NCBI RefSeq assembly: GCF_022045235.1 | Contig: NW_027266274.1 | Coordinates: 15,128,001-15,192,000 of the forward strand | Direction of reading: 5' to 3' | DNA from: Haliotis cracherodii | Taxonomy: Eukaryota | DNA length: 64,000 bases | In this document: in pieces, positions 1 to 55,118 of the stretch | How positions within the stretch are numbered: the first letter of the stretch is position 1 | How the letters are laid out: every line of letters starts with the position of its first letter | Notes under the pieces: model-generated | Seen by the model: only the letters and a program-made list of their open reading frames with translations | Told to the model about the DNA's origin: nothing | Database searches by the model: none | Program-made: the position numbers and the translations under genes

Positions 1-144
1 CCCTTCTGTAGACCAGACTGACTTATCTGTACCCCTTCTGTAGACCAGACTGACTTATCTGTACCCCTTCTGTAGACCAGACTGACTAATCTGTCCCCCT
101 TCTGTAGACCAGACTGACTTATCTGTACCCCTTCTGTAGACCAG
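1..144 (+). repeat. 32-bp tandem array of a splice-acceptor cassette (continues off the window)
   Basis: Unit ACCAGACTGACTTATCTGTACCCCTTCTGTAG; AG ends at 11, 43, 75, 107, 139. Confidence 0.95.
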
Positions 145-279
145 GTAGACAAACAGCAGGAGTCCCTCCAGCGCAGCCAGTCCCTGGAGGAGACCCAGAA
201 GCTGTACGAGGCAGGGAGCTACGACAAGGTGGTTGAGTTCCTGCTCCAGACCTTCTCTCAACCCCGCACAGCCAAGAAG
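140..279 (+). CDS. CABIN1: CABIN1 exon ([47 protein letters not shown])
   Basis: CTGTAG acceptor 138-139 (CAG at 143-144 is an alternative); AAG|GTGAGA donor. Confidence 0.88.
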
Positions 280-3200
280 GTGAGATATACCTCCACCTTC
301 TCTTAACCCCACACAGTCAAATGTTAGCTATATCACCACCTTCTCTCAACCCTGCACAACCAACAAGGTGAGCTATGTCTCTACCTTCTCTTAACCCTGC
401 ACAGCCAACAAGGTGAGCTATATCACCACCTTCTCTCAACCCTGCACAGCCAACAAGGTGAGCTATGTCTCTACATTCTCTTAACCCTGCACAGCCAACA
501 ATTTGAGCTATATCCCCACGTTCTCTCAACCCCACACAGCCAACAAGGTGAGCTATGTCGCCACCTTCTCTCAACCCCACACAGCCAACAAGGTAAGCTA
601 TGTCGCCACCTTCTCTCAACCCCACACAGCCAACAAGGTGAGCTACATCGCCACCTTCTCTCAACCCCACATAGCCAACAAGGTGAGCTACATCGCCACC
701 TTCTCAACCCCATTTTTTATAAAAAAAACAGTGGACTTGATGTCCCCTGCATTGAAAGTGCTGGAATATGCAGCACAAAACCTGTATCTCTGACCCTGAT
801 GTGGATGATGTCTGTTGCAGATATACCAGGGTAAAAGATTCCGGGGTAGAATAGGTCTTCAGCAACCCATGCTTGCCGTAAAAGGTGACTCTGCTTGTCG
901 TAAAAGGCGACTAACGGGATCGGGTGGTCAGGCTCACTGACTTGGTTGATGCATGTCATCGACCCCAATTGCGTGGTTCGATGCTCATGATATTAATCAC
1001 TGGATTGTCTGGTCCAGACTTGATTATTTACAGGCCGCCATCATATAGCTGGCATATTGCTGAGTTCGGCGTTAAACAACAAACAAACAAACAAACAAAT
1101 CTGTTGCAGATATCGGAGGCAGGCAGCTCTCTCCCCGAGCGGCACCGTCAGCTGATGCTGCTCCAGGACTCCCTCTTCAAGCTCAAAGACTACAAGGTTG
1201 GTGTTGAATGTCAAGGGTCTTAATACTCCTAATTCACATCCTAAAGCATGCTCACACCGGCTACATTAATTGCCCAGCCGATGGATCAGTGTGCACTGAA
1301 GTTTTCAGAAATGCCTCTTGCAGTAGGGTATTCAAGGGTACCTGGCATAGGAGATCTAGCTTAACCTAGCTTAACCTAGCTTAGACATCTTTTTGGGTCC
1401 CTTTATGTAGGTACCTTGTATTGGGCCCTGGAAATGAGAAGCTGTTTGTTGACCTCATATTGGGACCTTGTGTGATGTTGTGAAGCGGATCTCACACAGG
1501 GAGCTTGTGTAATTTTTTGAAGGGGACCTCACAAAGGGACCTTCTGTTATGTTCTAAAGGGGACCTCACACAGGGCCCTTGGGTTATGTTATAAAGGGAC
1601 CTCACACAGGGCCCTTGTGTCATGTTATAAAGGGGACCTCAAACAGGGCCCTCGTGTCATGTTATAAAGGGGACCTCACACAGGGCCCTTTGTCATGTTG
1701 TGAAGAGAACATCATATAGGGACCTTGTGTTATGTTGTAAAGGGACCTCACACAAGGACCTTGTGTCATTTTGTAAAGGGACCTCACACAGGGACATTTT
1801 GTATGGTGGCCCATATAGGAGGACCTTGTTTTATGTGGTAAAAGGGACCTCATATGGGGAATTAGTGGCAATTTGTATTGTGGACCTCATACAGAGACAT
1901 TATAAGGGACTTTTTATAGGGACCTTTTGTAGGGGACTTTATATAGGCACCATGTGTAGGGGACTTTAGATAGGGACCATGTGTAGGGGACTTTATATAG
2001 GGACCTTTTGTAGGGGACTTTATCGAGACACCATGTGTAGGGGACTTTATATAGGCACCATGTGTAGGGGACTTTATATAGGGACCTTTTGTAGGGGACT
2101 TTATATAGGCACCATGTGTAGGGGACTTTATATAGGGACCACATGTAGCGGACTTTATATAGGATCCGCGTGTAGGGGACTTTATGTAGACACCATGTGT
2201 AGGGGACTTTATATAGGGACCATGTGTAGGGGACTTTATATAGGGACCATGTGTAGGGGACTTTATATAGGGACCACGTGTAGGGGACTTTATATAGGGA
2301 CCATGTGTTGGGGACCTTATATAGGCACCATGTGTAGGGGACTTTATATAGGGACCGTGTGTAGGGGACTTTATATAGGGACCATGTGTAGGGGACTTTA
2401 TATAGGCACCATGTGTTGTGACTTTATATAGGCACCATGTGTTGTGACTTTATATAGGGACCATGTGTAGGGGACTTTATATAGGGACCGTGTGTAGGGG
2501 ACTTTATATAGGGACCATGTGTAGGGGACTTTATATAGGGACCTTTTGTAGGGGACTTTATATAGGCACCATGTGTATGGGACTTTATATAGGGACCATG
2601 TGTAGGGGACTTTATATAGACACCATGTGTAGGGGACTTTATATAGGGACCTTTTGTAGGGGACTTTATATAAGGACCATGTGTAGGGGACTTTATTTAG
2701 GGACCTTTTGTAGGGGACTTTATATAGGCACCATGTGTAGGGGACTTTATATAGGGACCTTTTGTAGGGGACTTTATATAGGACCATGTGTAGGGGACTT
2801 TATATAGGGACCTTTTGTAGGGGACTTTTTATAGGAACCTTTTGTAGGGGACTTTATATAGGCACCATGTGTGGGGGACTTTATATAGGGACCACATGTA
2901 GGGGACTTTATATAGACACCATGTGTAGGGGACTTTATATAGACACGACGTGTAGGGGACTTTATATAGGGACCATGTGTAGGGGACTTTATATAGGACC
3001 ACATGTAGGGGACTTTATACAGGGACCACGTGTAGGGGACTTTATATAGGGACCATGTGTAGGGGACTTTATACAGGGACCATGTGTAGGGGACTTTATA
3101 TAGGGACCACGTGTAGGGGACTTTATAGAGGGACCACGTGTAGGGGACTTTATATAGGGAACATGTGTAGGGGGCTTTATATAGGGACCACGTGCAGGGG

Positions 3201-6200
3201 ACTTTATATAGACACCACGTGTAGGGGACTTTATATAGGGACCATGTGTAGGGGACTTTATATAGGGACCACGTGTAGGGGACTTTATATAGGGACCATG
3301 TGTAGGGGACTTTATATAGACACCACGTGTAGGGGACTTTATATAGACACCATGTGTAGGGGACTTTATATAGACACCACGTGTAGGGGACTTTATATAG
3401 ACACCATGTGTAGGGGACTTTATGTAGGGACCATGTGTAGGGGACTTTATGTAGGGACCATGTGTAGGGGACTTTATATAGGGACCACGTGTAGGGGACT
3501 TTATATATAGGGACCACGTGTAGGGGACTTTATATAGGGACCACGTGTAGGGGACTTTATATAGGGACCATGTGTAGGGGACTTTATATAGGGACCATGT
3601 GTAGGGGACTTTATATAGGGACCATGTGTAGGGGACTTTATATAAAGGGACCATGTGTAGGGGACTTTATACTAGGGACCATGTGTAGGGGACTTTATAT
3701 AGGGACCACGTGTATGGGACTTTATATAGGGACCACGTGTAGGGGACTTTATATAGACACCATGTGTAGGGGACTTTATATAGGGACCGTGTGTAGGGAA
3801 CTTTATATAAGGACCATGTGTAGGGGACTTTATATAGGCACCATGTGTTGGGACTTTATATAGGCACCATGTGTTGGGACTTTATATAGGCACCATTTGT
3901 TGTGACTTTATATAGGGACCATGTGTTGGGACTTTATATAGGACCATGTGTAGGGGACTTTATATAGGACCATGTGTAGGGGACTTTATATAGGACCATG
4001 TGTTGGGACTTTGTATAGACACCACGTGTAGGGGACTTTATATAGGACCATGTGTAGGGTACTTTATATAGGACCATGTGTAGGGGACTTTATATAGGAC
4101 CATGTGTAGGGGACTTTATATAGGACCATGTGTTGGGGACTTTATACAGGGACCACGTGTAGGGGACTTTATATAGGGACCATGTGTAGGGGACTTTATA
4201 CAGGGACCGTGTGTAGGGGACTTTATATAGGGACCACGTGTAGGGGACTTTATATAGGGACCACGTGTAGGGGACTTTATATAGGGACCATGTGTAGGGG
4301 ACTTTATATAGGGAACATGTGTAGGGGCTTTATATAGGGACCATGTGCAGGGGACTTTATATAGACACCACGTGTAGGGGACTTTATATAGGGACCATGT
4401 GTAGGGGACTTTATATAGGGACCACGTGTAGGGGACTTTATATAGGGACCATGTGTAGGGGACTTTATATAGACACCACGTGTAGGGGACTTTATATAGA
4501 CACCATGTGTAGGGGACTTTATATAGACACCATGTGTAGGGGACTTTATATAGACACCACGTGTAGGGGACTTTATATAGACACCATGTGTATGGGACTT
4601 TATGTAGGGACCATGTGTAGGGGACTTTATATAGGGACCGTGTGTAGGGAACTTTATATAAGGACCATGTGTAGGGGACTTTATATAGGCACCATGTGTT
4701 GTGACTTTATATAGGCACCATGTGTTGTGACTTTATATAGGGACCATGTGTTTGGACTTTATATAGGACCATGTGTAGGGGACTTTATATAGGACCATGT
4801 GTAGGGGACTTTATATAGGACCATGTGTTGGGACTTTGTATAGACACCACGTGTAGGGGACTTTATATGGGACCATGTTTAGGGGACTTTATATAGGACC
4901 ATGTGTAGGGGACTTTATATAGGACCATGTGTTGGGACTTTGTATAGACACCACGTGTAGGGGACTTTATATAGACACCACGTGTAGGGGACTTTATATA
5001 GACACCATGTGTAGGGGACTTTATGTATTGGAGAAAACACTTTCCCTCGGTTTTAGTAGACAGAGCATGCCCTGGGGAGAGGGAAAAACCAAGGAGGCGG
5101 AGCCCCCACGGTTTTCCCAATCCCCAGGGCATGCTCTGTCTACCAAAACCAAGTGAAAGTGTTTTTCCATACTTATAAACTGTCTAAATTGATTAAATGT
5201 TATAACGAGCATCTATAAATGAGGGGCTTCATTATAGTGCTTCCTTGAAGACGTGATATCATAACTTGCATGAGAAATTCACTGACTTGCCAGGCGTTCA
5301 AGAGTACTTGGATTTGTCAACAACAAAACACAACTAAAATTCTTACTTTTAAATGAAAGAGAAATCTTCAGTTTCTAAATGTTTGTGTTGCAGTATTCCA
5401 CTTCTTTTAAACTTTTCAAAACGAAAATTTGCAAATTTTAAAGGTGTTTTTTGCTTTACAAGATTTTTGACTTTGAACAATCCAACTGTTACATAGAGGT
5501 ATTTGTGACGTAACGGCTAGCAGTTACTGCACGTGCAAATTGTGCAGCATTGATAAGCACTTGTTTAAAAGCGTATGTTTTGAAACCTCGCTGTCCTTTC
5601 ACCAGAAGTGATGTCACTTTTAAATGTCCACGCGGAACTGTACACATGACATTCAATATTAATTGAATTAAAATTTTGAATTGCTACTTGTCATTTTTTC
5701 AGTAAACCTGGGATTTGAGGTTTCATATTCAAAGTAAAACCTCCCGAACAAAAATAAAACCTCATAATAGGTTTTACTTTGAATGTAAAACCTCATAATA
5801 AGTTTTACTTTGAAAGTAAAACCTCACAATAGGTTTTAATGCCTATAGAAGGAACTCTCTTACTTAATAGCGATCCCAATGAATAGGTTTATAAATAGGC
5901 ACCACGTGTAGGGGACTTTATATAGGGACCACGTGTAGGGGACTTTATATAGACACCACGTGTAGGGGACTTTATAAAGGGACCACGTGTAGGGGACTTT
6001 ATATAGACACCACGTGTAGGGGACTTTATATAGACACCATGTGTAGGGGACTTTATATAGGCACCACGTGTAGGGGACTTTATATAGACACCACGTGTAG
6101 GGGACTTTATAAAGGGACCACGTGTAGGGGACTTTATAAAGGGACCACGTGTAGGGGACTTTATATAGACACCATGTGTAGGGGACTTTATATAGGCACA

Positions 6201-9200
6201 GTGTGTAGGGGACTTTCTATAGGCACCGTGTGTAGGGGACTTTATACAGGGACCACGTGTAAGGGACTTTATATATGTAAATCCTTCCAGAAATGTCTGC
6301 TGTGGGGTGAGGTGTCCTTCAATGAAGCTCTCCAGTGTTACCGGCGGGCGTCGGGGCAGTCACGGGATGAATGGCTCACTACCATCAGACAGATCTTTGA
6401 CCACATCAACAAGTGAGAAGCCACATATTTTAATCATTTTCAGTTTTCAAGAATGGAAATATTTGCTGTCAGAAGACATTTTCTTGAAGTGTTTGTAATG
6501 TTCAACTAAATGTTTGTCAAACTTTGTGACATATCCTTGAATAGAATTAGGTGAAGGAATTGTCATTTTAGCTTGCCGCCATAACTCAGTAAGATCTGTT
6601 GTGAAAAAAATGAAATTCTGTGGAGAGTGGCATCAGTTGTCTGTCACTGACTCACTTGCTCCTCCTCTCAACACACAGAGTCCTAGACATGGATGAGAGC
6701 ATACTGAAGAGCCTCCCATCCAGCAACACCGTCCGCCACACTCAGAACCTCATCCGCATGATCGAGCTGACGATGGACGCTTCGGACACTTCCCCCGAGG
6801 TGCCAAACACGGTCGTGTTGTCATGGATACTGTTGTCCAGACTCATCAAAAGGTATGAATTCACGAATATGAACTCATTAATATCTGAATAGTTTCTTGC
6901 AAACCTAGGCTTAAAAAATGTGCAGCGTATGTAAACATTCAAACATCTTACATCGACAAACTGTGGCCAAGGTTTTACCAGATGCCAAGTATCTCATCCT
7001 GGACTCGTACAATTTGATATTGGGCACAAGTAGTTTACATTGTAAGTCCTGTGGAATTCGATAAGGTCTGTTTAAAGCATAAACAATTATCAATATAGAT
7101 TGTGTGGTACAGGTAAAAGTAAGTTCTGTTCTCATAAGAAATACACTCAAGCCTCAGGGCATCAGTGGTTCATTTGCTTCAATCTATCATCTCTACATGG
7201 AGCTTGCTATGGGTGGCCCAATGTTCATGTCTGGACTCCAAACTGTGATGACTGTAATGTATGGACCTAAGTAAAACCCTGTATGGCAATAAGGACCCTA
7301 ATGACATTGAGACTTCTTTAAGTTCAGTCCATCAAGTTTACTGATGCAGGCTTCCGGCAAGATACGAACAACGTGTTCACCAGACACATGTGCCTGGAGA
7401 GCAGGCAACAACAGTTGCTCTTTTATGTGCGCTTCTTATTTCAAGTATTTTACAGTCTCTTCGTGCATTTATTATACCATTGACATTTATAGTTGTGTGT
7501 ATAATTATACATGTACAGTTTGTGTGTATAATAATACATGTACAGTTTGGTATATAATTATACATGTACAGTTTCTGTATAATTATACATGTACAGTTTC
7601 TGGATAATTATACATGTACAGTTTGTATATACAATTACACATGACGTTTGTGTGTATAATTATACATGTACAGTTTGTATATAAAATTATACATGTCGAT
7701 AAAGTGTATAATTATAATGTACAGTTTATATGTATGATTATACATGTACAGTTTGTACATCCTGGTTGCAGCGACACTATCATGTCAAGTGTCCAGCATC
7801 CCCACTGCTTCCTGCATAGTCAGCCCTGTATCCAAGGCCCCTTTTTTACTACAGCATTGATTTTTGTGCCAGTCAGTCATTGCTGAGATGTAGCTAGAGC
7901 TTGGACCAACCTGTCTGTATGTGTGTGTGTCTGCAGTGAGGAGGCCAAGTTGAGGTCCATGCTGGCGCCGGGGGAGGAGGGGACCAACATGGACGGCGCC
8001 ATCAGCAGCTCCCTCATGCTGCTCAACGTCGCACACGAGTATCTTGGGAGGTAAGTCAACAGTTTAAGGAATAGACAGATACTGATTTATATTTGGCTAT
8101 GGACCTGTGCCACTTTCAAGTGAATAATGTTATAAGCCACCCTTTTTTATTACATAATTGGGGCGGTGGGGTAGCCTACTGGTTAAAGCGTTCGCTCATC
8201 ATGCCGAAGACCCGGGTTCGATTCCCGACATGGGTACAATGTGTGAAGCCCATTTCTGGTGTCCCCCACAGTGATATTGCTGGAATATTGCTAAAAGCGG
8301 CATAAAACCTCATTCACTCACTCACTATTACATAATTATGCTCGTAGATTTGCTTTTTGTCTTGTCAATATTTATCAGAATAACTCTGCTGTTTAAATTC
8401 AGTGAGTCATTGTAACCATTAATATACTGGAAATTATTATTGTTTACAGTTTGGACAATTGATATGCAGATAAATGTGTTTGGTCCAAAGATATAGTTTG
8501 CTTGATTGTTTCAAATGTGGTTGATCCTTAACTACAGACAAGGTCTTACTTCAGTCTTTCCTGACACATTAACCTCACAAAAAGTCGTGTAACTGAAATA
8601 TTGTTCAAAGCAACACCCGTGAAGACCCAGGGAAGTATAGGTCTTCAGCAACCCATGCTTGCCGTAAAAGGCGACTAAACTTGTCGTGACTAACGAGATC
8701 GGGTGGTCAGGCTCTGTGACTTGGTTGATGCATGTCATCGTATTGTTCATGGATCAATGCTCATGATGCCAATCACTGGTTTGTCTGGTCCCGACTCGAC
8801 TGTTTACAGACCACTGTCATGTAGCCGGAATATTTCTGAGTGTGGCGTTAAACAACAAACAAACAGATTAAAGCAACATTAAACTGAACTCACTCACTTG
8901 TAAATTCTCTTGAAGAAGAAGCCAGTCAAAAATAAAAAATAAATAATTTTTTTAAAAAATTTTGAGGGTTAGCATAAGATGACACTTCTGTGCTACTTCA
9001 GACACTCGTGGTGCACCAAGTCGGATGGTGCTCTGCTGCTGTACTTCCTCAATGAGCTGGAGCAGGAGATGAAGAAGCCCCACTTCATCAGGGAGGGGCT
9101 GGACATGGCCCTGGAGCAGTGCATCTTCTGTCTGTACGGACACCCACACAAGCGGGGCAAGGCCAAGCACCTGCAGGACCATAACGCTCCACCGGTCAGT

Positions 9201-12200: not shown

Positions 12201-15200
12201 AATTACATTTGACCCATGAAGTTAGGTACGCCACCACATCCTGGATAACATCAAATGACCTGGTCAGTCTCGGGTCATCATAGCTGTAAAAGGTCATCAC
12301 CCCATTGTACATATGTTAGGGACAATAAATATGTGTTGTCCTTGCACAAGACTTGCTAAAGACAATTTTGGTTCCGAACTGTGATATTTTCAGTTCATCA
12401 ACACTTTTGGCTAATAATCTCTGGTTATTATGTTTGCACATTTAGATATATAAAAGGTGGGTCTTTAACATGTTTAACACAGTGATGTTGACAAAAGCAG
12501 TGGTTATGTTTGTTGACCCATTTCAGTTGCTGAAGTAAAAGTTTGTTTGCTTGTTGTTTATGCCCCCCTCAGCAATATTCCAGATATATGACTGCAGTCT
12601 GTAAATAACCAGTCAGACAATCTAGATCAGACTATCTCGTGATTGGCATCATGAGCAGCGATCTAAACTGTTATATATGATAACATGCATTTACCAGGTC
12701 ACCTAAGCTAAGCACCCGATCCAATTTGTTGCCTCTTACGACAAGTCATGGGTTGCTGAAGACCATTTTTGACCTGGATCTTCACAGGGGATGAAATAAA
12801 ATTAATAGCATATGATGAGGTGAACTACAGTACCATGGCACTGTGTGGTAGCATCTTTTCATGCCTAGACAATGATGCTGTGATGGATTTTCTGTTCAGA
12901 TACAAGTTGTACAAATATTAAACTTTTATACAGCCAAACATCACGAGACAGTTCAGAACTACATTGAAGGGAATACCAACACCGCCCCATCCTCACAGAC
13001 AGACAGGTGAGTCAGTCAGGCTCTCATTATCCTCAGTTGGGTGAGACTTGCCAAATTCAGTGATAAAATCATTTTACTTGCAATTTTGTAATTTCCATTT
13101 GTAAACTATTGCCCTTTTTCATTTTACATTTTCAAAAATTTTATTGAAAAGAAATCAAAGCCTAAGTGAGATGTGTTTGACACTGCTTTCAACGTTTTTT
13201 CATATCTTTGCATGGCAGAAATGGAAATTCCATTCTGTCGCGATTTAACATTCTGGTGAAACTGAAAATGATCATGAAAATGTTGTGACAGCTTACCATA
13301 AAGATACTCTGTTTTGTCAGCCGAAGGGTAATGTGTTTCCTGTTTTCCAGCTCCATCTTGAAGGGTCTGTATTACCTCCTGGGCGACTACTACTTCAAGA
13401 ATAAGGAAACACCGTAAGTAGACACTCAACATCAGTTCTCAACATGACAACCGTTTTGTTACAACTACATGCAGAAAGCTAATTAAGTGATTGTTAACTT
13501 AACCCCCTGGCTTTTCGCTTCTACTCAACCTTTCGAGGGGAATTTACAGTACGACATGTCGCCATCTTGATTCAGGAAGGCCTTTATGTTCTACATGTAT
13601 GACATGGCGCCACCTGTTTCAAGCAGGCCATCAAGTTCTCCAAGTGTGACATGTCACCATCTTGTTTCAGGAAGACGGTAAAGCTCAACATGTATGACAT
13701 GTCACCATCTTGTTTCAGGAAGACGGTAAAGCTCTTCATGTATGACATGTCACTATCTTGTTTCAGGAAGGCTATCAAGTTCTAAATGTATGACATGTCA
13801 CTATCTTGTTTCAGGAAGGCTATCAAGTTCTACATGTATGACATGTCACCATCTTGTTTCAGGAAGACGGTAAAGCTCTTCATGTATGACATGTCACCAT
13901 CTTGTTTCAGGAAGGCTATCAAAGTTCTACATGTATGACATGTCACCATCTTGTTTCAGGAAGGCTATCAAGTTCTACATGTATGACATGTCACTATCTT
14001 GTTTCAGGAAGGCTATCAAGTTCTACATGTATGGCATGTCGCCATCTTGTTTCAGGAAGGCTATCAAGTTCTACATGTATGACATGTCGCCATCTTGTTT
14101 CAGGAAGGCTATCAAGTTCTACATGTATGACATCTCACTATCTTGTTTCAGGAAGGCTATCAAGTTCTACATGTATGACATGTCACTATCTTGTTTCAGG
14201 AAGGCTATCAAGTTCTACATGTATGGCATGTCACTATCTTGTTTTAGGAAGGCTATCAAGTTCTACAAGTATGACATGTCACTATCTTGTTTCAGGAAGG
14301 CCATCAAGTTCTACAAGTATGACATGTCACCATCTTGTTTCAGGAAGACCATCAAGTTCTACAAGTATGACATGTCACCATCTTGTTTCAGGAAGACCAT
14401 CAAGTTCTACAAGTATGACATGTCACCATCTTGTTTCAGGAAGGCCATCAAGCTCTCCAAGTATGACATGTCACCATCTTGTTTCAGAAGGCCATCAAGC
14501 TCTCCAAGTATGACATGTCACCATCTTGTTTCAGAAGGCCATCAAGCTCTCCAAGTATGACATGTCACCATCTTGTTTCAGGAAGGCTATCAAGTTCTAC
14601 ATGTATGATCTCGGCAGCAACCCCACCAGACTAGACTCATGGGCAGGGTTGGCACTGGCGCGGATGAGCCAGCTGGAACAGAAGCTCAGCTCGGTAAGAG
14701 AAGATTTCTTGTCATAAATCCTTGAATGATAACTATTTTCACTGTAAACTTTAACCAGGATCAAGCCTTGTTTTGAATTTGGGTCACTTTACTTTTGGAG
14801 TGTCTCGCTGCATTCAATATCGATCGTGGTGATACAACTGGAATAGTATTCAAAGCGGCATTAAACCCAACTCACTCACTTACTCTCAATATCGATCACT
14901 GGATTGTTTAGTCCAGACCCGATTATCTAAAGGCTGCTGTAATATAGCTGAAATATTGCTGAGTGTGGCATTAAACTACAATTACAATTTTGGAGTCCTA
15001 AAATTGAAACACAAACTCATTATTGATGTGGTCATTACACTCTTCGTCAGAGGAATTAATTCTTTCAAAAATTCTTCACCGAGAATGTCAATTTTTACCC
15101 ACAAACAATGGAAATCCATTAAAAAACAAGGTTGAAAGGCAGGGTTTTACATTGACCTACAAAACCATGGGTCCAGAGGACCATGAGGACCCCCAGTTAC

Positions 15201-18200
15201 TAATTTCAAGGGTCCTTCCAGTAAATACGAGGTTCCTGTAAAGTAATGAAATGGTCTAGTGTACCGTACTGTAAGATTTAATAATTACTTTAATTACAGG
15301 AACTTTAAATTTTTGTCAAGGTTTTGGTACACCTGTACTCCACCTGTACTTGATGGCCCATGTAATCTAGCAACTCATTTCAGATGGAGCTGCGCATGGA
15401 CATCTCTATACACAAGAAGTCTATAGCAGCTCTGCGGTGTTTCCGCCGCGCGGTGGAGATTGACGAGACACAGAGGAACCTGTGGATAGAGTACGGCTCC
15501 CTGGCCTACCAGCTCCACTCACATGCTTCCAGGCAACTCAAGATGGTAGGTGATCCAGGCCCTCTTAGGGGATTTCTCTAAGATTTGTTTGTTTGTTGCT
15601 GCTACACTCAAGCAATGTGATATCCTGCATGTTGTCAAGTCTGGATCAGACAATCCAGTGATTGGCCACAATGTAATGTCCCATGCTGTCTGGTTCCGAT
15701 GTCACAAGAGTGACTTGTTCCCCCTGTAGGATGGTGGGGAATTCTGTCTTCTATCTCTGTATCCCCACAGAGAGACTGGTTCACCTGTAGGATGGCGGGG
15801 AATATGGATGACTCTGTCTTATATCTCTGTATCCCCACAGAGAGACTGGTTCACCTGTAGGATGGCGGGGAATATGGATGACTCTGACTTATATCTCTGT
15901 ATCCCCACAGAGAGACTGGTTCACCTGTAGGATGGCGGGGAATATGGATGACTCTGACTTATATCTCTGTATCCCCACAGAGAGACTGGTTCACCTGTAG
16001 GATGGCGGGGAATATGGATGACTCTGACTTATATCTCTGTATCCCCACAGAGAGACTGGTTCCCCCTCTAGGATGGCGGGGAATATGGATGACTCTGACT
16101 TATATCTCTGTATCCCCACAGAGAGACTGGTTCCCCCTGTACGAGGAGCTGCTGGGGATTGTGACGGACACAAAGCAGGAGATGCTGCAGATCGCCCAGA
16201 ACTGTTATTGGAAGGCCAGTGAGTGTGAAGCCGACGGCAGCGAGGAGGAGTGGCTGCACCACTACATGATAGGCAAGGTGAAGGAGAAGAAGAGGTGTCA
16301 CCCTAAAGAATACCTGGAACACTACAGACAGGTGAGTTGTACTTGGAGCACTACAACTATACTTGGAACCAAGTTAACTTGTTATGACATTTCAGTCACT
16401 GCAGATGATAATTTCCAGTGTTTTGTTTACTGTTCATACAGTGAATGTATTGGGTAGGTGTTACACATGTGTATCAGTGTATTCAGGGTATTAAAACATT
16501 CACTGGCACCTCTCCCTATTCCAGGCAGCAATCTACCTCCACGAAGATGAGGCCTTCTATCCCAAGAAGATCACATACGCCAACAGCCCACCCAAACTGG
16601 CTCTTGAAGCGCTCGAGGTAACAGATTCTCAACTCCCACATACTCCATGCTTGTATTAGTAGCCAACTGTGTTTACAGTGTGTGACCTGGCTGATAAGGT
16701 GTTATAGTTTCACAACAACATTCACAGATACTTGTGCTATCAATCATTTGTTGGCCACATCCATTGCACAGACATGTTGCCTCTTGAACTAGAGAAGTCA
16801 CGTTTCACATATAAATACTTCTACAAGTGGAGCAGACCCATGAAGATCTGGGGTAGTACAGGTCTTCAGCAACGCATGCTTGCTGTAAAAGGCGACTATG
16901 CTTGTCATTAGAGGCGACATGCGGAATCAGGTTTTCAGACTCGCTGACTTGGTTGATGCATGTCATCGTTTCCCAGTTGCGCAGATTGATGCTCATGATA
17001 TCAAAAACTGGATTATTAGTCCAAAGTTGATTTGTTTTTGTTAGGGTCTAATCATTCTTGTTTGATACTGTTTGCAGATGACAGCAATTAAAAAGTGTTG
17101 CTGCTGAAGTATGATATCAATATATGTCCATATGTTATATTTGCTCTCAGATATCTCTAATTACTGAAACAATAATAAGGGGTGTATGTTCCATTGATTA
17201 TCAACAGTAGATTTCAATATATTACATCCTAGCCACTCGTGAAGATCTGGGTTAGAATAGGACTTCAGCAACCCTTACTTGCCGTAGGAAGAGATTATGC
17301 TTGTCATAAGTCGCGATCGGGGTTGTCAGGCTCGCTGACTTGGTTGATGCATGGCATCATGTCCCAATTGCTTGGATCAGTGCTCATGATATCAATAACT
17401 GGATTGTCTGGTCCAGACTCGATTATTTACAGACCGCTGTCATTTAGCTGGAGTGCAGCTTTAACATTAAAATGACAAACTAACATATACTAGTGGAGCG
17501 TAGATGATGTTTTAAATAATGTCTTGAGGATAAAAGGTCGGCAGAGGACAGTTGATGTTAAGATGGTGTTTTCAGGTGTTCTACCTGTAGAACATTGCTG
17601 ATGTTAAAATGGATGTTTTCAGTTCTACCTACAGAGCATAAATTGTGTTATGATGATGTTACAGGATTCTACATAAAGAACATTGATGATGTTAAAATGC
17701 ATGTTTTCAGTTCTACCTACAGAGCATAAATTATGTTATGATGATGTTACAGTATTCTACCTAAAGAACATTGATGATGTTAAAATGGTTGTTTTCAGTT
17801 CTACCTACAGAGTATACATGATTTCAAGTGTTGTTCCTATAAAACAGATGGTGTTTTAGGTGTTCTGCCTATAAAGGGTAGATGATGTTTTAGCCTGATG
17901 CTGCTTATGTCATAGTCATAGAGCATAGACATGTTTACAGTTGTTCTACCTATAGAGCATAAGTAATATCAAGATGATGTTTCAGGTGTTCTACCTATAG
18001 AGCATACATAATGTTAAGATGATGTTTCAGATGTTCTACCTAAAGAGCATACGTAATGTCAAGATGATGTTTCAGGTGTTCTACCTATAGAGCATACGTA
18101 ATGTCAAGATGATGTTTCAGGTGTTCTACCTAAAGAGCATACATAATGTTAAGATGATGTTTCAGGTGTTTTACCTTAAGAGCATACATAATGTTAAGAT

Positions 18201-21200
18201 GATGTTTCAGGTGTTCTACCTATAGAGCATTTGTAATGTCAAGATGATGTTTCAGGTGTTCTACCTTAAGAGCATATATAATGTTAAGATGATGTTTCAG
18301 GAGTTCTACCTTAAGAGCATACGTAATGTCAAGATGATGTTTCAGGTGTTCTACCTATAGAGCATACGTAATGTCAAGATGATGTTTCAGGTGTTCTACC
18401 TGTGGAGCATACGTAATGTCAAGATGATGTTTCAGGTGTTCTACCTGTGGAGCATACGTAATGTTGAGATGATGTTTCAGGTGTTCTGCCTATGGAGCAT
18501 ACGTAATGTCAAGATGATGTTTCAGGTGTTCTACCTATAGAGCATACGTAATGTCAAGATGATGTTTCAGGTGTTCTGCCTATGGAGCATACGTAATGTC
18601 AAGATGATGTTTCAGGTGTTCTACCGCCTGCACGTGGCTATCCTGAAGCAGCTGCTGAAGAAGGATGGGATGGTGGACTACGAGCTGTTCCAGCACTACC
18701 TCACCGAGGCTGCCGAGAGTCCATTTGCAAAGGGCAAGGAGAAGAGGCATGAAAGGTGAGCTTTGTGCCAGTCTCACCGATTTGTCAGGTTCTGAAGATT
18801 GGAATTTTTGCAATGTTCCAGTCCCAGATTTCCCTGATTATGTTTCGGGTTTGTCAGCACCATACCCGTGCTTGTGACTTTAAACAAAGTGGTAAACGCC
18901 TGCATCACCTGGGGTTTCCCCCCAGATGTGATTATAGCTGAAATGTTGCTCACTTGGGTATATCATTCATTCCATCAGCGTTAATAACTCTGTGTAATGA
19001 TGTACATGTTTGATGCAGACGAGAGTCCCACTCTAACTCCATGGACGAAAGCTCCTCATCCAACCTCACCCCCCCAGCCTACAGCCAGCTGAAGGCCCGC
19101 CCTGTGTATCACATGACCCCCCAGGACCACACCTATTCCAAGCAGAAGAGCTCAGTGGACGGGTCGGACACGTCGTGTGATGTGGTCAAGGAAGTTCAGG
19201 GCAACGACAGCTCCCACTCCAAACCTGCAGCCGTGGCTGCTAAGGAGGGGCAGAAGTCGGAGGATAAATCTGGAAAATCGGAAAAAGAAGCTGAAAGCAA
19301 ACCTGAAGCCATGGAGGTGTCGAAAGATGGAGATTTGCTAAAGATCCAGAGACACGTGAGTACAGAATTTGTGCCCAAAGATGGGGATGTTACAGCAGGA
19401 GGTGCTGAACAGAAGTGTGTGGGTAAGGAATTGAAATCAATTCCTGAAGAAAAACGACAGAAAAGTGATTCACAGGACGTCAAAGCTGATAGTGCTAAGT
19501 CTGAAAGTGCTAAAGTGATGCCAGATGGGGATAAAGTGATGCCTGTTGATGATAAAGTGATGCCTGTTGATGATAAAGTGATATCTGGTGATGATAAAGT
19601 GATATCTGGTGATGATAAAGTGACATCTGGTGATGATAAAGTGACATCTGGTGATGATAAAGTGACAGCTGAGAAAGGCAAAGATGCTTCTGACCCAAGT
19701 GAAACAAAACAGAAAGACAAGGATGAGTTGAATGATAGTGTGTTGGTGTTAGATCCCGCCACTGGCCTGATGGTGCCTATGCTAGAGGATGACATGGAGG
19801 TTGATGACGTGATAGAATCTGTAGTCAGTGACAAGAGTAAAGCCAAGACTGTGGAGGATCCCGTGAAGGACCCCAAACCTGCTGCAAGTACTCCAGTCTT
19901 AGGTAAAGCCCCTCCTGTCCATGACATAGATGTTATTGAGATTAGTGATGATGAATCTTCAAATCCTGCTAAATCTACAGTATCCTTGTCCCTTAAGAAG
20001 CCATCTGACTCTTGTAAAGATTCTGAAACTAAAGTTGGACCTGAAGCCAAAAAAGAGCTTTTTGGAAAGGTTAAGGAGAATAGCACTAGTTCTAAAGACA
20101 CTCCGAAACGTGAAACCAAAAAGCCTGAGAAGTCTAAACCAGATGATGAATCACTTCATGATGAATCATCACGGTTGTCTGATAACTCGGATGAGTCGGA
20201 CTCATATCAGCAGGACTCCCTGGACACAGAGATCCTCCACACGGAGCTGATTGACAAGTGTGTAGACGCACTTCATCTGTGTGTTCAGCGCTTCCCCACT
20301 CACTACAAGTCTCTGTACAGACTGGCTCACGTATACATGACATCGCCATACCACAAGGTAAGACAGAAAACTTATGACATCATTATAACAGAACACCTGC
20401 ATGCAGATACGAGTAAGAATTGGTGTTCACGGTTGTGCTTGTCAAATAAAAACAGAATTGAGTGGTCATTCTTGCTGACTTGGTTGATGCATGTATTTGT
20501 ATCACAATGACGTAGATTGATGTTCATGATGTCAATCACTGGGTTATCTGGTCCACTTGATTATTTACAGACCATTGTTACATAGCTGTCATTGCTGAGT
20601 GCAGCGTTAAACAACAAACAGACAATATAACAGAACATTTATGTTTGCTTGTCGCTAATTAGTTATTAGTTTCTATAGTTGTACTCGAAAAGAATTCTGT
20701 CTGCAAAGAGTTTCATAACAATATATTTGGTTCTGAATTTCATTTGCCATGGTATCTGTTAGATAGTGTTTGCAAAGGTTTGAAAATATTTTGATTTAAT
20801 TGGTTTAATCTTGAAAAAGCAAAAGATTGATGCCTTTGATCTTTTCAAATTACCGTAAATACAGTGAAATCTTTAAAACTCACACACATTATATCGTTTC
20901 TTGACAGCACCCTTATTGATGACATTGTCAAAGATCAGCACTTTTGGACAACAGACCTTGATTTTATGAGGTTTTAAGTACTAAATGGAATGTGTTGAAC
21001 CATGTCTCTTTCTGCCACATTGAGACCATAGACAATGAGTTCTTCAGAGTTCTTGAGTCAGACGGTGATTTTAACATTTCGAGATTACCATGATTGCAAG
21101 TGTTGTGATGTTCTTCAGTAGGCAGTGTCAGGTACTGATTGTAGCAACTGTATGTTACAAAATATTAAGTTGTTGATAGGGCTGTGTATTGACCTAGATT

Positions 21201-24200
21201 TTGTATGCCAATATATTGCCATACTTTAACCTGTATTGCGATGCATATTGCAATATATTGCCAATTTACATTTTCATGAGTTAATCAGAGTTATACACTG
21301 TATTAATGTCAGATACAATCAAGCTCCTTCCAAGCGTGTGACACCTTCATTATGCTCTCAGTATAGAGAGCTCCGCAGACAGGCTATTGCTGTGAGGAGA
21401 TTGACATGTGTACACATTAATTGATAAAAAGATCGTCAGAGGTTAGTTGTATGAGAAAGATACTATTTTCCAGACAAGAGAGTATGAAATTTTGAAATGT
21501 GAAAATCTTTATCTTTATCTTTGATGTCCTATTTAGTCATCTTGTCAGCAGGGGGGATAGGGTTTTGAGGATGTTCATTCATCCTCTTTGCTATGTAATT
21601 GTAAGGGACTCCAAGAGGTAAGGTACTCACATTCTTCTTGAAACATGAAATATGTATCCATCATTGTTCCAGAACCTGGAGTATGCCAGGGACTTGTTGC
21701 TAGGCAACAACAACTGGCAGAACCTGTCTCACATGCCCGGGCCAGGTCTGTTTGCAGAGAGACGGACAGCTAACTTCTTCCAGGTACAGTCTTTCAGTAA
21801 TACCATGGTGTATCAACAAGTCAGAGGACAGCCCAAACTGAATAACGTTGCAGATTTTTCCTGTTGAAACACGTCATGGTACTACTAGATTAAAAAATCT
21901 TTATCAGCATGCATGTGTCATTCAAACCCAAGACCGGGTTGATTGTGGAAGCATTGCTTCACACAGCTGGGCACCCATGTAATATAGTGATGGATGTTTT
22001 GAAAGAAGAGGCCATTAAGTAACAACACAGAAGCAATAACATTATTTCAGGAAAGATTTCTGTCCATAACACCTGCATCCATTTTTTCCTCCATGCATGA
22101 CTTTTTGATACTTCTGGCCCTAACCCTAACCCTGCATACATGATTTTTTTATACTTCTAGACCTAACCCAAACCATCACCCTCACCCTAACCTAACCCTG
22201 CATGCAAGATTTTTTTATACTTCTGGCCCTAACCCTAACCCTGTATGCATGATTTTTTATACTTCTAGCCCTAACCCTAACCCTAACCCTGCATACAAGA
22301 TTTTTTTATACTTCTGGCCCTAACCCTTACCCAGCATACATGATTTTTTTTATTCTTCTAGACCTAACCCAAACCATCACCCTCACCCTAACCTAACCCT
22401 GCATACAAGATTTTTTTATACTTCTAGCCCTAACCCTAACCTTGTACGCATGATTTGTTTATACTTCTGGCCCTAACCCTAACCCTGATTTTTTATTCTT
22501 CTGGCCCTAACCCTAACCCCGCATACATGATTTTTTATACTTCTGGCCCTAACCCTTACCCAGCATACATGATTTTTTTTATACTTCTAGACCTAACCCA
22601 AACCATCACCCTCACCCTAACCTAACCCTGCATACAAGATTTTTTTATACTTCTAGCCCTAACCCTAACCTTGTACGCATGATTTATTTATACTTCTGGC
22701 CCTAACCCTAACCCTGATTTTTTATACTTCTAGCCCTAACCCTAACCCTGTATACATGATTTTTTTTTTACTTCTGGCTCTAACCCTAACCTTGTACGCA
22801 TGATTTGTTTATACTTCTGGCCCTAACCCTAACCCTGATTTTTTATACTTCTAGCCCTAACCCTAACCCTAACCCTGTATACATGATTTTTTATACTTCT
22901 GGCCCTAACCCTCACCCTAACCCTGTTTGCATGATTTTTTTATACTTCTAGCCCTAACCCTAACCCTAACCCTCACCCTACACACATGAACTTTATATAC
23001 TTCTAGCCCTAGCCCTAACCCAAACCTTCACCCTAACCCTAACCTAACCATACATACATGAACTTTTTATACTTCTAGCCCTAACCCTAACCCTAACCCT
23101 CACCCTACACACATGAACTTTTTATCCTTCTAGCCCTAGCCCTAACCCAAACCTTCACCCTAACCCTAACCTAACCCTACATACATGAACTTTTTATACT
23201 TCTAGACCTAACCCAAACCCTCGCCCTAATCCTCACCCTACATACTTGAACTTTTTATACTTCTAGTCCTAACCCTAACCCTACATACATGATTTGTTTA
23301 TGCTTCTGTGGGTTATGAGTTTTTAATTATTTCAAGGCAGGAGTTACTCCTGTAAGTTTTACCGTTATTACCTCCTGTTGCTTTATGACTGCCACTGATT
23401 AACACTGTATCTTGCTCTAGGGTATATGGAAGATCCCCATTGAAGAGATAGATAGATCAGGGAGCTTTGCATCTCACATCCACCGTAGTGTGCGTCTGTT
23501 GCTGGACATCCTCACGGAACAAAAGGACATCATGATGCTGTACCACATCCACATCCAGCTGAACCGATCTCTGGACACTGGCAAGTGAGTGGACAATGTT
23601 CTTTGTGTATTTTTTTTTTTTTTGCGGTAGAAATTAACTTAAGCTCTTGACAACCAGTATTCAAGTTTTCAATGGGATAAGGGAAAATGAATTTTCACAA
23701 ACTCTTGCTCACATTCAACTAGTTTTATTAAATAAGCGAGAAGAATTTCAGATTTTCAGTAGTTATGTCTTATAGGTATTATATGTTGACCAATGTGTGT
23801 ATCTGGTCAGCACTAAGAACTCCCATGAAAATCTGGGTAGGATTGGCCTTCAGCAAACCATGTTTATCATAAGAGGCGATTAACGGGATCAGTTTGTCAT
23901 ACTCGCTGACTTGGTTGATGCTTTAGTCATTGCCATGCATGTTTTAGGAAATATCTCCGAGATCAGGAGAGGAACTGCTTTGCCAAGTCGTCCTTCAAGG
24001 CAATCCAAGAGGCCGTCACAGAGGAACTGAAGCATTGGGACCGGAAGAAGCCCCGAGACAAGCAGCTGGACTACCTGATGACCGTGTACAGAGTGTGGCA
24101 CCACTCATCCCACAAGCTCAATGCTTTTGTGGATGGCTGTACAGACCTGTTTGTCAAGGTTTACAAACTTGTACAAAAGGATTATGTGAGTGTAGCAGGA

Positions 24201-48069: not shown

Positions 48070-49434
48070 TACTGAACCGAAAAAGAAACGTCACTATTTG
48101 TCCAAACACTGTAAAAATACTTTGAGATATATTAAAAGATGACACTTGGCAAAATCATCAAGGTTGAAATTAAAGTGTCAAATTTTCTTAAAGTGAAACA
48201 CAATACTAGTCTCTGAGAAAATGGCATCACAAGTCAGTATCTCGTGTGTCCGCCATGTGAATTGATGACAGTCGTGCAACGTCAACACATGGAATGAATG
48301 AGGCGGTTGATGAAGGTATAGGACTTGAACCCACATCCTGAGAAACTCCTGACCCAGTTCAGCTGCAGTTGACGGCCTTGGTCGGACGTCATTCAGCCGT
48401 CTTTGAATCTCGTCCCACAGGTGTTCAATGGGATTTAAATCGGGACTGAGGGCAAGCCACTGCATGGTTGTGCTGCCATTCTGACTGAGGAAGTCTCTTG
48501 TTGCTCACGAAGTGTGGGCACGGGCGTTTTCATGTTGAAACTCGTGGTTGCGGCGACGTGCCAAATGAGGTATGGCGTGTGGTCTCAAGACTTGATCAAA
48601 GTACTGAGCTTCTGTGACACCATTGCCTCTCTCTGGACCGATGTTCTGGAAGACCACAGGGCCGACCCTCTGTGCAAGACCAATTCCACCCCACGCCATG
48701 ATTTCTCTGCCATCTGCTGTTGAGATACAATAACGGCTCTCGTCTGAGAAGAGGACTCTTCTCCTCTGTTGGTGGCGCCAATGCTTGTGTTGTGTTGTCC
48801 ACTGAAGATGGTCCCGGCGATGACATGGCGTCAGAATTGGTCCTCGGTGTGGCCTGTGACTGTGGAGGTGTCTGCTCGTCAATCGTCGACGCACGGTGTC
48901 CACACTAATGTGTTGCTGCCGTGTCCCCATGGTCTGTCGAGCAGTTTCCGCAGCAGTAACAAAGCGATTTTGAAGATGCTGTCGCACATCTGTAGTTTTG
49001 GTGGTCTGGTACCGTTGCTGGAGCCTGCATATGGTCCCTATGTGGACTTGAAATGCAATGGCTACTTCCCGCGCAGTTTTTTCAGCTTCCAAAAGTCCAA
49101 AGGCTTGGTGTCGCTGATTTCTTGTCAGTCTTGGCATGTGGTAGCAATTCAATATCGAGTGAATGTTATCCGATCTGGGTGGATTTTTATAGCGCAAGAA
49201 ATGGGGAAACGCATGTGCATTTCAATTTGCATGGAACTCACGCGCCTGGGTTGCCGTGATGCGTTTGGGCGATCGGTTTTATTGTCATTTGCTTTGTTTT
49301 ATTAGCATCAAATTTTATTTTTCCGGACAAGGTAATGTTAAATTTTATAAACTTTGACAAAAAAATCCCAGATATTTAAGTGACAACTTTTCATGCAATG
49401 CTTGTTGGGGTGAGGTTTCTTTTTCGGTTCAGTA
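48070..49434 (-). mobile_element. Tc1/mariner (DD34E-type) transposon with both termini and a disrupted transposase
   Basis: TA target duplication; TIR TACTGAACCGAAAAAGAAAC / GTTTCTTTTTCGGTTCAGTA; MPRLT..HTH start at 49137; FSDESRY, FQHENARAH and SPDLNPIEHLW split across frames. Confidence 0.93.
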
Positions 49435-53000: not shown

Positions 53001-55118
53001 CCGCATAAACGACGAAGTCATCAAAACGTTAAGAGACTCTCATGACAGTCAACAGATATGAACCTGTGAATCAGATCTTGATCTTGCCTGTTTGCAGTTA
53101 TGACATCACCTAATGCAGTTAGAAGGCTAATCTGCCCTGAAAGAATGATTTTAGGGGTTTTCAGTGACATATTTGTAATGTTTGACTCACGCTGATTGTC
53201 TTCCAAAATGCAGATAACAACAGTACAAACAGGAGCAAATCATTTTGGCTTATAGAATTGCTCACAGTTAGATTTCCCTTGGAAGCTTCACTTATTTATC
53301 CACTTCTTTAATACTTGAACATGCAGGAAGTAAACGAAGTGCATGTGTGAAAAAGATTATGTAATTTCCATATCATTATTACACAGTTTTCTCGAACGTA
53401 TTACAAATTTCTATTTCATACTCAAGTTGTTAAGTCATAACAGTCATTTTGCTGCGATGTAGCTGTTAAATACACACTTCAACTTTTAATGCATTGCATG
53501 TTACAGCTCCCCAATGCGACGCTGACACAGATTGTCAGAATGGTGGAACCTGTGACAAAAATAGTCCCCAGTATCTTTGCAACTGCGTCCCTGGTTATGG
53601 AGGAGACACATGCAATCTAGGTACGTTTATATGACCCGTGACCATGTCAGCCATAGATTCTACTGGACAAACTAAGATGTTGTAAATGTGGATGGGCTCT
53701 CATGCAAGGCAATCTCAATGTTGTGTACAGTGCCTAAAATTCATTGCATGTGTTTAATTACCTGGCTACAGACAATATTTCTCCTTATATTACTAAATAC
53801 GTACATGCAAAAGAGCTCTGCAAAATCAACTGTTTATGTCCGATAGAGTTCCTGGTGCAGTTGAGCAATCCTTTGGAACAACATACTAGAGAAATGTTGA
53901 AACATTTTAAAGTTAATACTATCGTATTTATAAAACAGTTTTATTGTTTTCCTATTGTAAATAAGGACATAGATACACTACTGCCTAAAAGTTCATTCCC
54001 CTAACACGCGTTGAGAGCCACAGTGATGAATAGTGTTGTCTTTAGAAATGTCTTCAGAGAATGACAATAATTACTGCAAAACAACAACTTACACAATCCA
54101 ACACATATGCTGCTTTCATAGGCATTTCAACCCTTAAACACATTTATCTCATTGCCCTTTAAAGAACAAGATATGATAAAGGCTCTTTTTAACCCACTGG
54201 ATCCACATAATCGAAGAAATCATCAAAACGTTAAGAAATTGTCATGACAGTCAACAGATATGTACCTGTGAATCAGAACTTGATCTTGCCTGTTTGCAGT
54301 TATGAAATCACTTAATGCATTTTGAAGGCTAATCGGCCCTGAAAGGAAGATTTTAGGGGTTTTCAGTGACATATTTTTAATGTTTGACTCGCGCTGATTG
54401 TCTTCAGAAATGTAGATAACGACAGTAAAAACAGGGGCAAATCATTTTGGGTTATAGAATTGCTCATAGTCAGATTTCACTTGAAGTTTTACTTATTTAT
54501 CCACTTCTTTAATACTTGAACATGCAGGAAGTAAAAAAACGTGCATGTGTGAAAAAGATTATGTTATTTCCATATCATTATTACACAGTTTTCTCTTACG
54601 TATTACACATTTATATTTAATACTCAAGTTGCTAAGACAACAGTCAAATTGTTGCGATGTAGCTGTCAAATGCTCACTTCAGCTTTTAATGCATTACATG
54701 TTACAGCTCCCCAATGTGACGCTGACACAGATTGTCTCAATGATGGAACCTGCGACAAAAGTAGTGATCAATATCTTTGCAAATGCGCCCCTGGTTATGG
54801 AGGAGACACATGCAATCTAGGTACGTTTATATGGCCCTTGATTCCTAGTGGACAAATTATGTTGCTCTAATGCAAGGCAATCTGAATATTGTGCCTGAAG
54901 AAAAACTACTCACACTTCACAACATAAGGAAATGACGACCAATTCATCGTTTTCGATTATTGCTTTCCAAGATCACTGAACATTAAATAATTGAAAACGA
55001 ACAGATCATGAATGTAACATCAATGTACTGTATTTCAGCTTCTGGTGCTGCTAAGGTATCGGTGCATCTCCTGCTTCTCACGGGTGTCGCTGCCCTTGCA
55101 AAGCTGAACCTCAACTGA
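50047..55118 (+). CDS. Small signal-peptide, probably GPI-anchored protein with four EGF-like domains; apparent 1-nt frameshift in exon 2
   Basis: Exons 50047-50080, 50520-50641, 52305-52418, 53507-53620, 54707-54820, 55039-55118. EGF motifs CTTDSTCSEHGTC..CTCDTGYIGDLC and CDADTDCQNGGTC..CNCVPGYGGDTC. C-terminus SGAAKVSVHLLLLTGVAALAKLNLN*. AATAAA at 55597. Confidence 0.78.
52215..54890 (+). repeat. About 1.2-kb tandem duplication (2.2 copies) carrying a 114-nt phase-1 EGF exon
   Basis: Exon starts 52305, 53507, 54707; intron sequence also duplicated (ORFs 52542 and 53744 nearly identical). Confidence 0.95.

Follow-up and report, generated by a model that had tools for sequence, protein, structure and literature searches.

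A 48-bp splice-boundary minisatellite in an abalone CABIN1 gene, with the last acceptor copy used in assembled transcripts

The CABIN1 locus and its boundary array

The window (the whole stretch of DNA analysed, 64 kb long) contains a gene whose spliced fit to the Haliotis rufescens cabin-1-like protein P0006 yields 41 exons and 40 GT-AG introns, with a spliced frame holding a single stop, at its end; the model includes stretches upstream of the window. A search with an exon open reading frame matches a Patella cabin-1 and a Batillaria homologue, and a second protein search returns 830 relatives, with P0006 among the 120 listed. Most exons are more than 90% identical to P0006, which marks the animal as an abalone, and the match to named cabin-1 proteins, colinear and of high identity along the exons, identifies the predicted gene as a CABIN1 orthologue. 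Pfam returns no family on the CABIN1 exon open reading frames, and on P0006 it places TPR matches only near the N-terminus.

Several other elements accompany the gene. The two large CABIN1 exons contain in-frame coding repeats with 21-bp and 45-bp units (19511-19665 in the window, and -13309..-12595, window-relative, on L007). Located 3' of the CABIN1 stop at 25368, an open frame of 587 aa (27896-29659) starts at an acceptor-like sequence and has no Pfam match; it may represent either a separate gene or an alternative last exon of CABIN1. A broken Tc1/mariner-type transposase occupies 48178-49221 on the minus strand (HTH_Tnp_Tc3_2, E 5.9e-09), and an EGF-domain exon of another gene is found at 54553-54870 (E 1.7e-07).

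At one CABIN1 acceptor the end of the intron and the start of the exon are repeated in tandem, and the boundary is built from the following features:

13351..13413, + strand: upstream CABIN1 exon, followed by the phase-2 donor at 13414 (spliced fit to P0006)
13414..14581, + strand: intron holding the array, 1168 nt, GT-AG, phase 2
13540..13557, + strand: unique 5' flank with the intron-side microhomology GTACGA, an 18-mer with a single occurrence in the window
13545..14608, + strand: minisatellite, its unit combining the first 21-27 nt of the exon with an intron end that carries TGAC, a pyrimidine tract and YAG
13624..13670, + strand: distal 47-bp unit, directly 3' of the degenerate AAG acceptor at 13623
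13911..13959, + strand: 49-bp unit (+A), from the unit-length table of the array
14488..14581, + strand: two identical exon-proximal 47-bp units, one G missing after CAG
14580..14581, + strand: authentic AG (putative RNA contigs and spliced fit to the cabin-1-like protein)
14582..14693, + strand: CABIN1 exon of 112 nt, 3' of the array, joined to 15384 in the X9 and X17 contigs

TRF assigns the array a period of 48 bp, 22.2 copies and 92% matches. Analysis reveals 21 TT[CT]AG acceptors, the true site included as the last of them, and together with the degenerate AAG copy these make up the 22 acceptor units that an earlier note on this DNA had counted, with the true site at the end of the row. 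Among the 21 intervals between acceptors, 17 measure 48 bp, three measure 47 bp (13624, 14488 and 14535) and one measures 49 bp (13911), and the -G and +A length changes are of the homopolymer type. The two proximal 47-bp units are neighbours and identical, and have other diagnostic bases in common with unit 14440; variants in general are common to blocks of units, with the greatest divergence in the edge units. When the array end is searched against the source genome with a tool that scores only the best candidates, 9 of 9 matches fall inside the array, and the array derives from its own locus rather than from a dispersed repeat. High-copy dispersed repeats, recognised by very high contig depth, lie in the introns 3' of the exon at 14829-14990, 15185-15330 and 15586-15667.

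Acceptor use and reading frame

Contigs from 7 of 21 runs were examined; three raw runs dated 2026, all miRNA libraries, were left aside. The RNA status of X5, X9, X11 and X17 is putative, none of them being recorded as RNA; three of these four carry other organism labels, and only the label of X5 is closest to that of the window. The exon starts at 14582 in the contigs of all four putative RNA runs, and none of them has depth at 14520-14560. In the X5 contig, the loose 5' letters equal the final 30 nt of the exon before the intron, establishing a direct junction from 13413 to 14582, and the X9 and X17 contigs skip the GT-AG intron 14694-15383. Use of an upstream copy is not seen in any contig, a form of evidence that drops rare isoforms, such as those with low-level use of upstream copies or of 21-nt micro-exons. 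The main isoform uses the last acceptor copy, and for that isoform regular splicing is undisturbed.

With a matrix built from this gene's acceptors, 18 upstream copies score 10.2-11.8 and two score about 8, and the true site scores 10.9; the AAG copy, at offset 958, is weak at 0.8 against 8-12 for the other copies. With most upstream copies on a par with the true site, acceptor strength cannot account for which one is chosen. The exon measures 112 nt from the true site; begun at the alternatives it would measure 159, 206, 254 nt and more, reaching 1118 nt, and 36 of 39 internal CABIN1 exons are no longer than 210 nt. The acceptor is likely chosen by position. Exon definition is an established principle of splicing, and through it the last of the 21 near-equal sites would win.

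The 48-bp unit is by itself frame-neutral, and the offsets of the upstream copies to 14581 (47, 94, 142...622, 671...911, 958, 1006) are all as the earlier note gave them, with no multiple of 3. These 21 offsets are not independent, since four length changes lie behind all of them and two of the four are the identical neighbouring units. Random placement of the four changes yields p 0.048, and p 0.025 when both neighbouring units are moved as one block, under a permutation null that disregards where length changes tend to fall.

When the upstream exon is spliced on paper to the 20 upstream YAG sites in turn, every read-through runs into a premature stop: TAA 13679 (one site), TAA 13783 (three), TGA 13936 (three), TGA 14558 (twelve) and TAG 14632 (one). 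The stops lie 59-1012 nt before the exon end, and with 59 nt or more to junction 14693 in 20 of 20 read-throughs they would trigger NMD under the 50-55 nt rule, should it apply in molluscs. Starting from any of the other in-frame AG dinucleotides at or beyond 13549, 30 in number, likewise leads to a stop. The claim that read-through from any upstream acceptor frameshifts a conserved TPR-like region stands as regards premature termination, but at three of the sites the frame is closed by an in-frame TAA and not by frameshift. Its description of the region holds for length, the exon junction reading KNKETP-KAIKFY with a pattern matched in 102 of the 120 listed homologues, identical spacing in 102 of 102 and no insertion at the junction in any of these; as for TPR character, the exon after the array gives only weak matches, the best at E 0.0035 to designed TPR proteins. 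In addition, each unit contains a weak internal GT 20-22 nt 3' of its AG, and an in-frame 21-nt micro-exon route, overlooked in the earlier note, exists on paper.

Other individuals and other splice sites

Two DNA runs of organism A from two studies, X1 and X6, each hold a contig that starts in flank-like sequence, passes a single acceptor and continues across the exon and past it. These contigs carry the exact 18-mer of window position 13540 one unit before the exon, and GTACGA stands in them twice, once on the intron side and once on the exon side, at a distance of 48 bp; slippage by 48 bp would be expected to start from such a pair. X1 also holds a unit-like 78-bp contig at depth 127 versus 21, and X6 holds unit-like contigs at a summed depth of 583 versus 12.5. 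The simplest reading is that two of the three DNA runs, X1 and X6, are likely heterozygous for an array-less allele; the high-depth unit-like contigs also fit a collapse of the array by the assembler. Types of unit and their depths differ among X1, X6 and X10, which may reflect array lengths that vary between haplotypes or, again, assembler collapse. The third DNA run, X10 (organism B), has a summed unit depth of 793 and an exon contig that starts at 14579, as expected if the array abuts the exon. The X1 contig shows five differences in the 112-nt exon 14582-14693, all synonymous and two of them common to organism B; the contig may be a mosaic, or the allele may have diverged deeply.

The array might be a presence/absence and copy-number polymorphism that acts as an allele-specific leak, with part of the carriers' CABIN1 pre-mRNA spliced at upstream acceptors and lost to NMD, no such loss from array-less alleles, and frame-breaking nearest units kept against in-frame TPR insertions; this is unlikely. 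If it were true, abalone, with arrays at about 5% of sampled sites, would possess thousands of heritable splice and expression dials.

Boundary arrays occur at 7 of 80 CABIN1 splice sites. The six beyond the 48-bp array sit at four acceptors and two donors, with one on each side of exon 140-279:

1..144, + strand: 32-bp array of 12.9 copies at acceptor 139, beginning 5' of the window
250..712, + strand: 45-bp array at donor 280, nearest unit 43 bp
15743..16141, + strand: 70-bp array at acceptor 16121, with an open in-frame second copy at offset 141
17931..18625, + strand: 45-bp array at acceptor 18615, with an open in-frame nearest copy at offset 45
-1341..-453 and -19745..-19555, window-relative, on L006 and L007: two arrays 5' of the window

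A degenerate 44/88-bp array at 17553-17822 resembles the 45-bp acceptor array just 3' of it and is possibly an older part of that array.

Arrays were detected by TRF overlap with splice sites; a regular expression for junction copies caught only 4 of the 7 CABIN1 arrays. The outside sample consists of myosin-head genes in 60 stretches, with a profile from 78 of 150 representatives. Of 169 introns fitted, 164 were kept, the five omitted having a low margin or score; five HMM hits (alternative or duplicate exons) and one of 170 exon pairs, which had no fit, were also left out, and the tandem myosin cluster at C12:64.6-65.0 Mb lies outside the sample. Arrays occupy 13 of 328 myosin splice sites, two of them borderline (C6 donor 8445 and C67b donor 17590), and pooling with CABIN1 gives 20 arrays at 408 splice sites, about 5%. 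Among intronic arrays, 19 of 75 cross a splice site versus 12.5 expected by sliding, a crude null, and an enrichment at splice sites is not claimed. Two observations concern the myosin genes themselves: about 13 tandem myosin-head genes are clustered at C12:64.58-64.96 Mb of the source genome, and at C12 ~65.95 Mb (L077-L078) four successive matches to one segment of the myosin profile (191-225) are likely mutually exclusive exons, as judged from the repeated match.

The periods of the 20 arrays are distributed 7/7/6 over the three frame classes. A nearest copy that is both open and in frame occurs in 4 of 20 arrays against 3.96 expected from frame and the intronic stop rate; three of the four are CABIN1 arrays with an intact nearest copy (offsets 33, 45 and 66, at -500, 18571 and -19644). 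The unit beside the exon is off-period in 8 of 20 arrays versus 17 of 188 interior units (p 0.0007), and this edge change affects 4 of 7 arrays with 3n periods and 4 of 13 others (p 0.36). With the 48-bp array left out of the count, 7 of 19 arrays still show it, so the pattern of the 48-bp array is common. In two arrays the length change at the edge creates an open in-frame copy (67 to 66 and 50 to 48). Among these 20 comparable arrays the frame-breaking state is no commoner than chance, although n = 20 offers little power and weak selection is compatible with the counts.

These counts bear directly on the suggestion that the frame pattern is special. A selected safeguard would operate through low-rate upstream use, with in-frame 16-aa TPR-like insertions being harmful, frame-breaking nearest units favoured and leaks directed to NMD. 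Within the 48-bp array such selection is consistent with the stop in all 20 YAG read-throughs, at least 59 nt before the exon end, with the permutation values of 0.025-0.048 and with the invariant junction spacing in 102 of 102 matched homologues, and the 45-bp donor array at 280 repeats the same pattern. The same gene, however, carries open in-frame nearest copies at three other splice sites, the test on 20 arrays gave no signal, two edge indels produce in-frame open copies, and upstream use is absent from contigs, which would lose rare isoforms. Of the features of an NMD-coupled alternative acceptor, premature stops are found in 20 of 20 read-throughs, and an excess of the frame-breaking state is not found among the 20 arrays. 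The safeguard is accordingly rejected as an account of the pattern, and we regard it as quite improbable.

Origin of the array and comparable systems

The best explanation, and a probable one, is a locus-specific minisatellite likely born by slippage, spliced at its last copy and likely subject to neutral edge decay of frame. Birth would have occurred by slippage or duplication between the short matching words GTACGA, one in the intron and one in the exon, 48 bp apart. Growth may have followed by slippage or unequal exchange, with the interior homogenised and the edges decaying. Somatic instability has reportedly been seen in the Adh3 mirage minisatellite of amphioxus. The frame-breaking indels would then represent neutral decay at the edge, likely not a safeguard, and rare use of an upstream copy would yield a predicted NMD target as a by-product.

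The one-base changes could instead be assembly errors, in which case the true array would consist entirely of 48-bp units and in-frame 16-aa expansions would become possible. The homopolymer-type nature of -G and +A lends itself to this reading, and contigs with G at 14533 are present in X1, X6 and X10; ordinary units, however, would yield G-containing contigs anyway. The two 47-bp units are moreover identical, neighbouring and linked to unit 14440 by their diagnostic bases. In X10 a contig of depth 12.1 spans 14501-14576 without a gap, and the tables show no difference for it at 14516-14539. The tables, rather than the letters themselves, thereby imply a single-G junction (14533/14534) in independent data, and an assembly error becomes less likely at that junction only. 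Assembly error is very unlikely, and even if it were true the last site would still be the one used in transcripts.

Least credible of all is that the units serve as cassette micro-exons (AG + 21 nt + GT, giving in-frame duplications of 7 aa) or that a new intron could be built from them: a GT does stand 20-22 nt after each AG, 21 nt keeps the frame and PMC3087553 offers an intron-gain model, but scores of 3.0-4.5 put the internal donors under the lower quartile for real ones (6.1), the smallest real CABIN1 exon has 46 nt, the X5 junction is direct and the matched homologues carry no insertion.

Such a minisatellite has clear counterparts. The 48-bp array combines a boundary-spanning unit, a terminal authentic site, a local origin, normal splicing and divergent edges, and it is a 'mirage' (splice-boundary) minisatellite. 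In amphioxus, the available text of PMC3087553 describes mirage minisatellites as tandem copies of an intron/exon boundary with regular splicing, copy-number differences between haplotypes and edges that are not homogenised, and PMC3902484 agrees; the loci include Adh3, the globins BflGb6 and BflGb9, troponin C and PGBD5 (PMC3087553, PMC3902484). The two systems are alike in that the terminal unit holds the authentic site, the unit is tens of bp long, splicing proceeds normally and the edges are less homogenised. Unlike amphioxus, the abalone is a mollusc, its array has 22 copies and is one of seven in the same gene, an array-less allele likely exists, and the frame class of the pseudo-sites is counted here, whereas the available text of PMC3087553 and PMC3902484 holds no such count.

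Two human loci offer further parallels. In F7, a 37-bp VNTR of 5-9 copies on the donor side of IVS7 uses only the exon-proximal site, a case tested by mutagenesis, and in-frame pseudo-donors are silent too (PMC1557585). Identical splice sites in a row, with the exon-proximal one used, are common to both arrays, but the F7 case concerns the donor side and rests on mutagenesis, whereas the abalone array is on the acceptor side and known from sequence and contigs. In CBS, c.844_845ins68 duplicates the acceptor on some alleles and the downstream copy is spliced (PMC7490669). This case likewise duplicates an intron end and exon start on some alleles only, with the downstream copy in use, but it adds a single 68-bp copy and no array.

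Taken alone, the CABIN1 array is likely ordinary and harmless, a known type of repeat that splicing ignores. The modest value of the analysis lies in a measured array frequency, about 5% of the sites sampled, and in the neutral frame result. Abalone boundary arrays supply many natural tests of site choice among near-identical copies and can mislead gene prediction and read mapping, and the likely array-less allele displays the microhomology that would seed the repeat. A literature search returned no report of splice-boundary arrays in abalone, within a coverage that excludes most subscription journals. An intronic 27-bp minisatellite of abalone is on record and is not described as boundary-crossing in the available text of PMC6905558. 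The window has a 27-bp minisatellite of its own, in two blocks (1906-5024 and 5895-6275) within a 5.1-kb CABIN1 intron, the second of which stops 15 bp short of acceptor 6290, and an intronic 43-bp minisatellite at 22088-23307 is built around telomere-like CCCTAA words.
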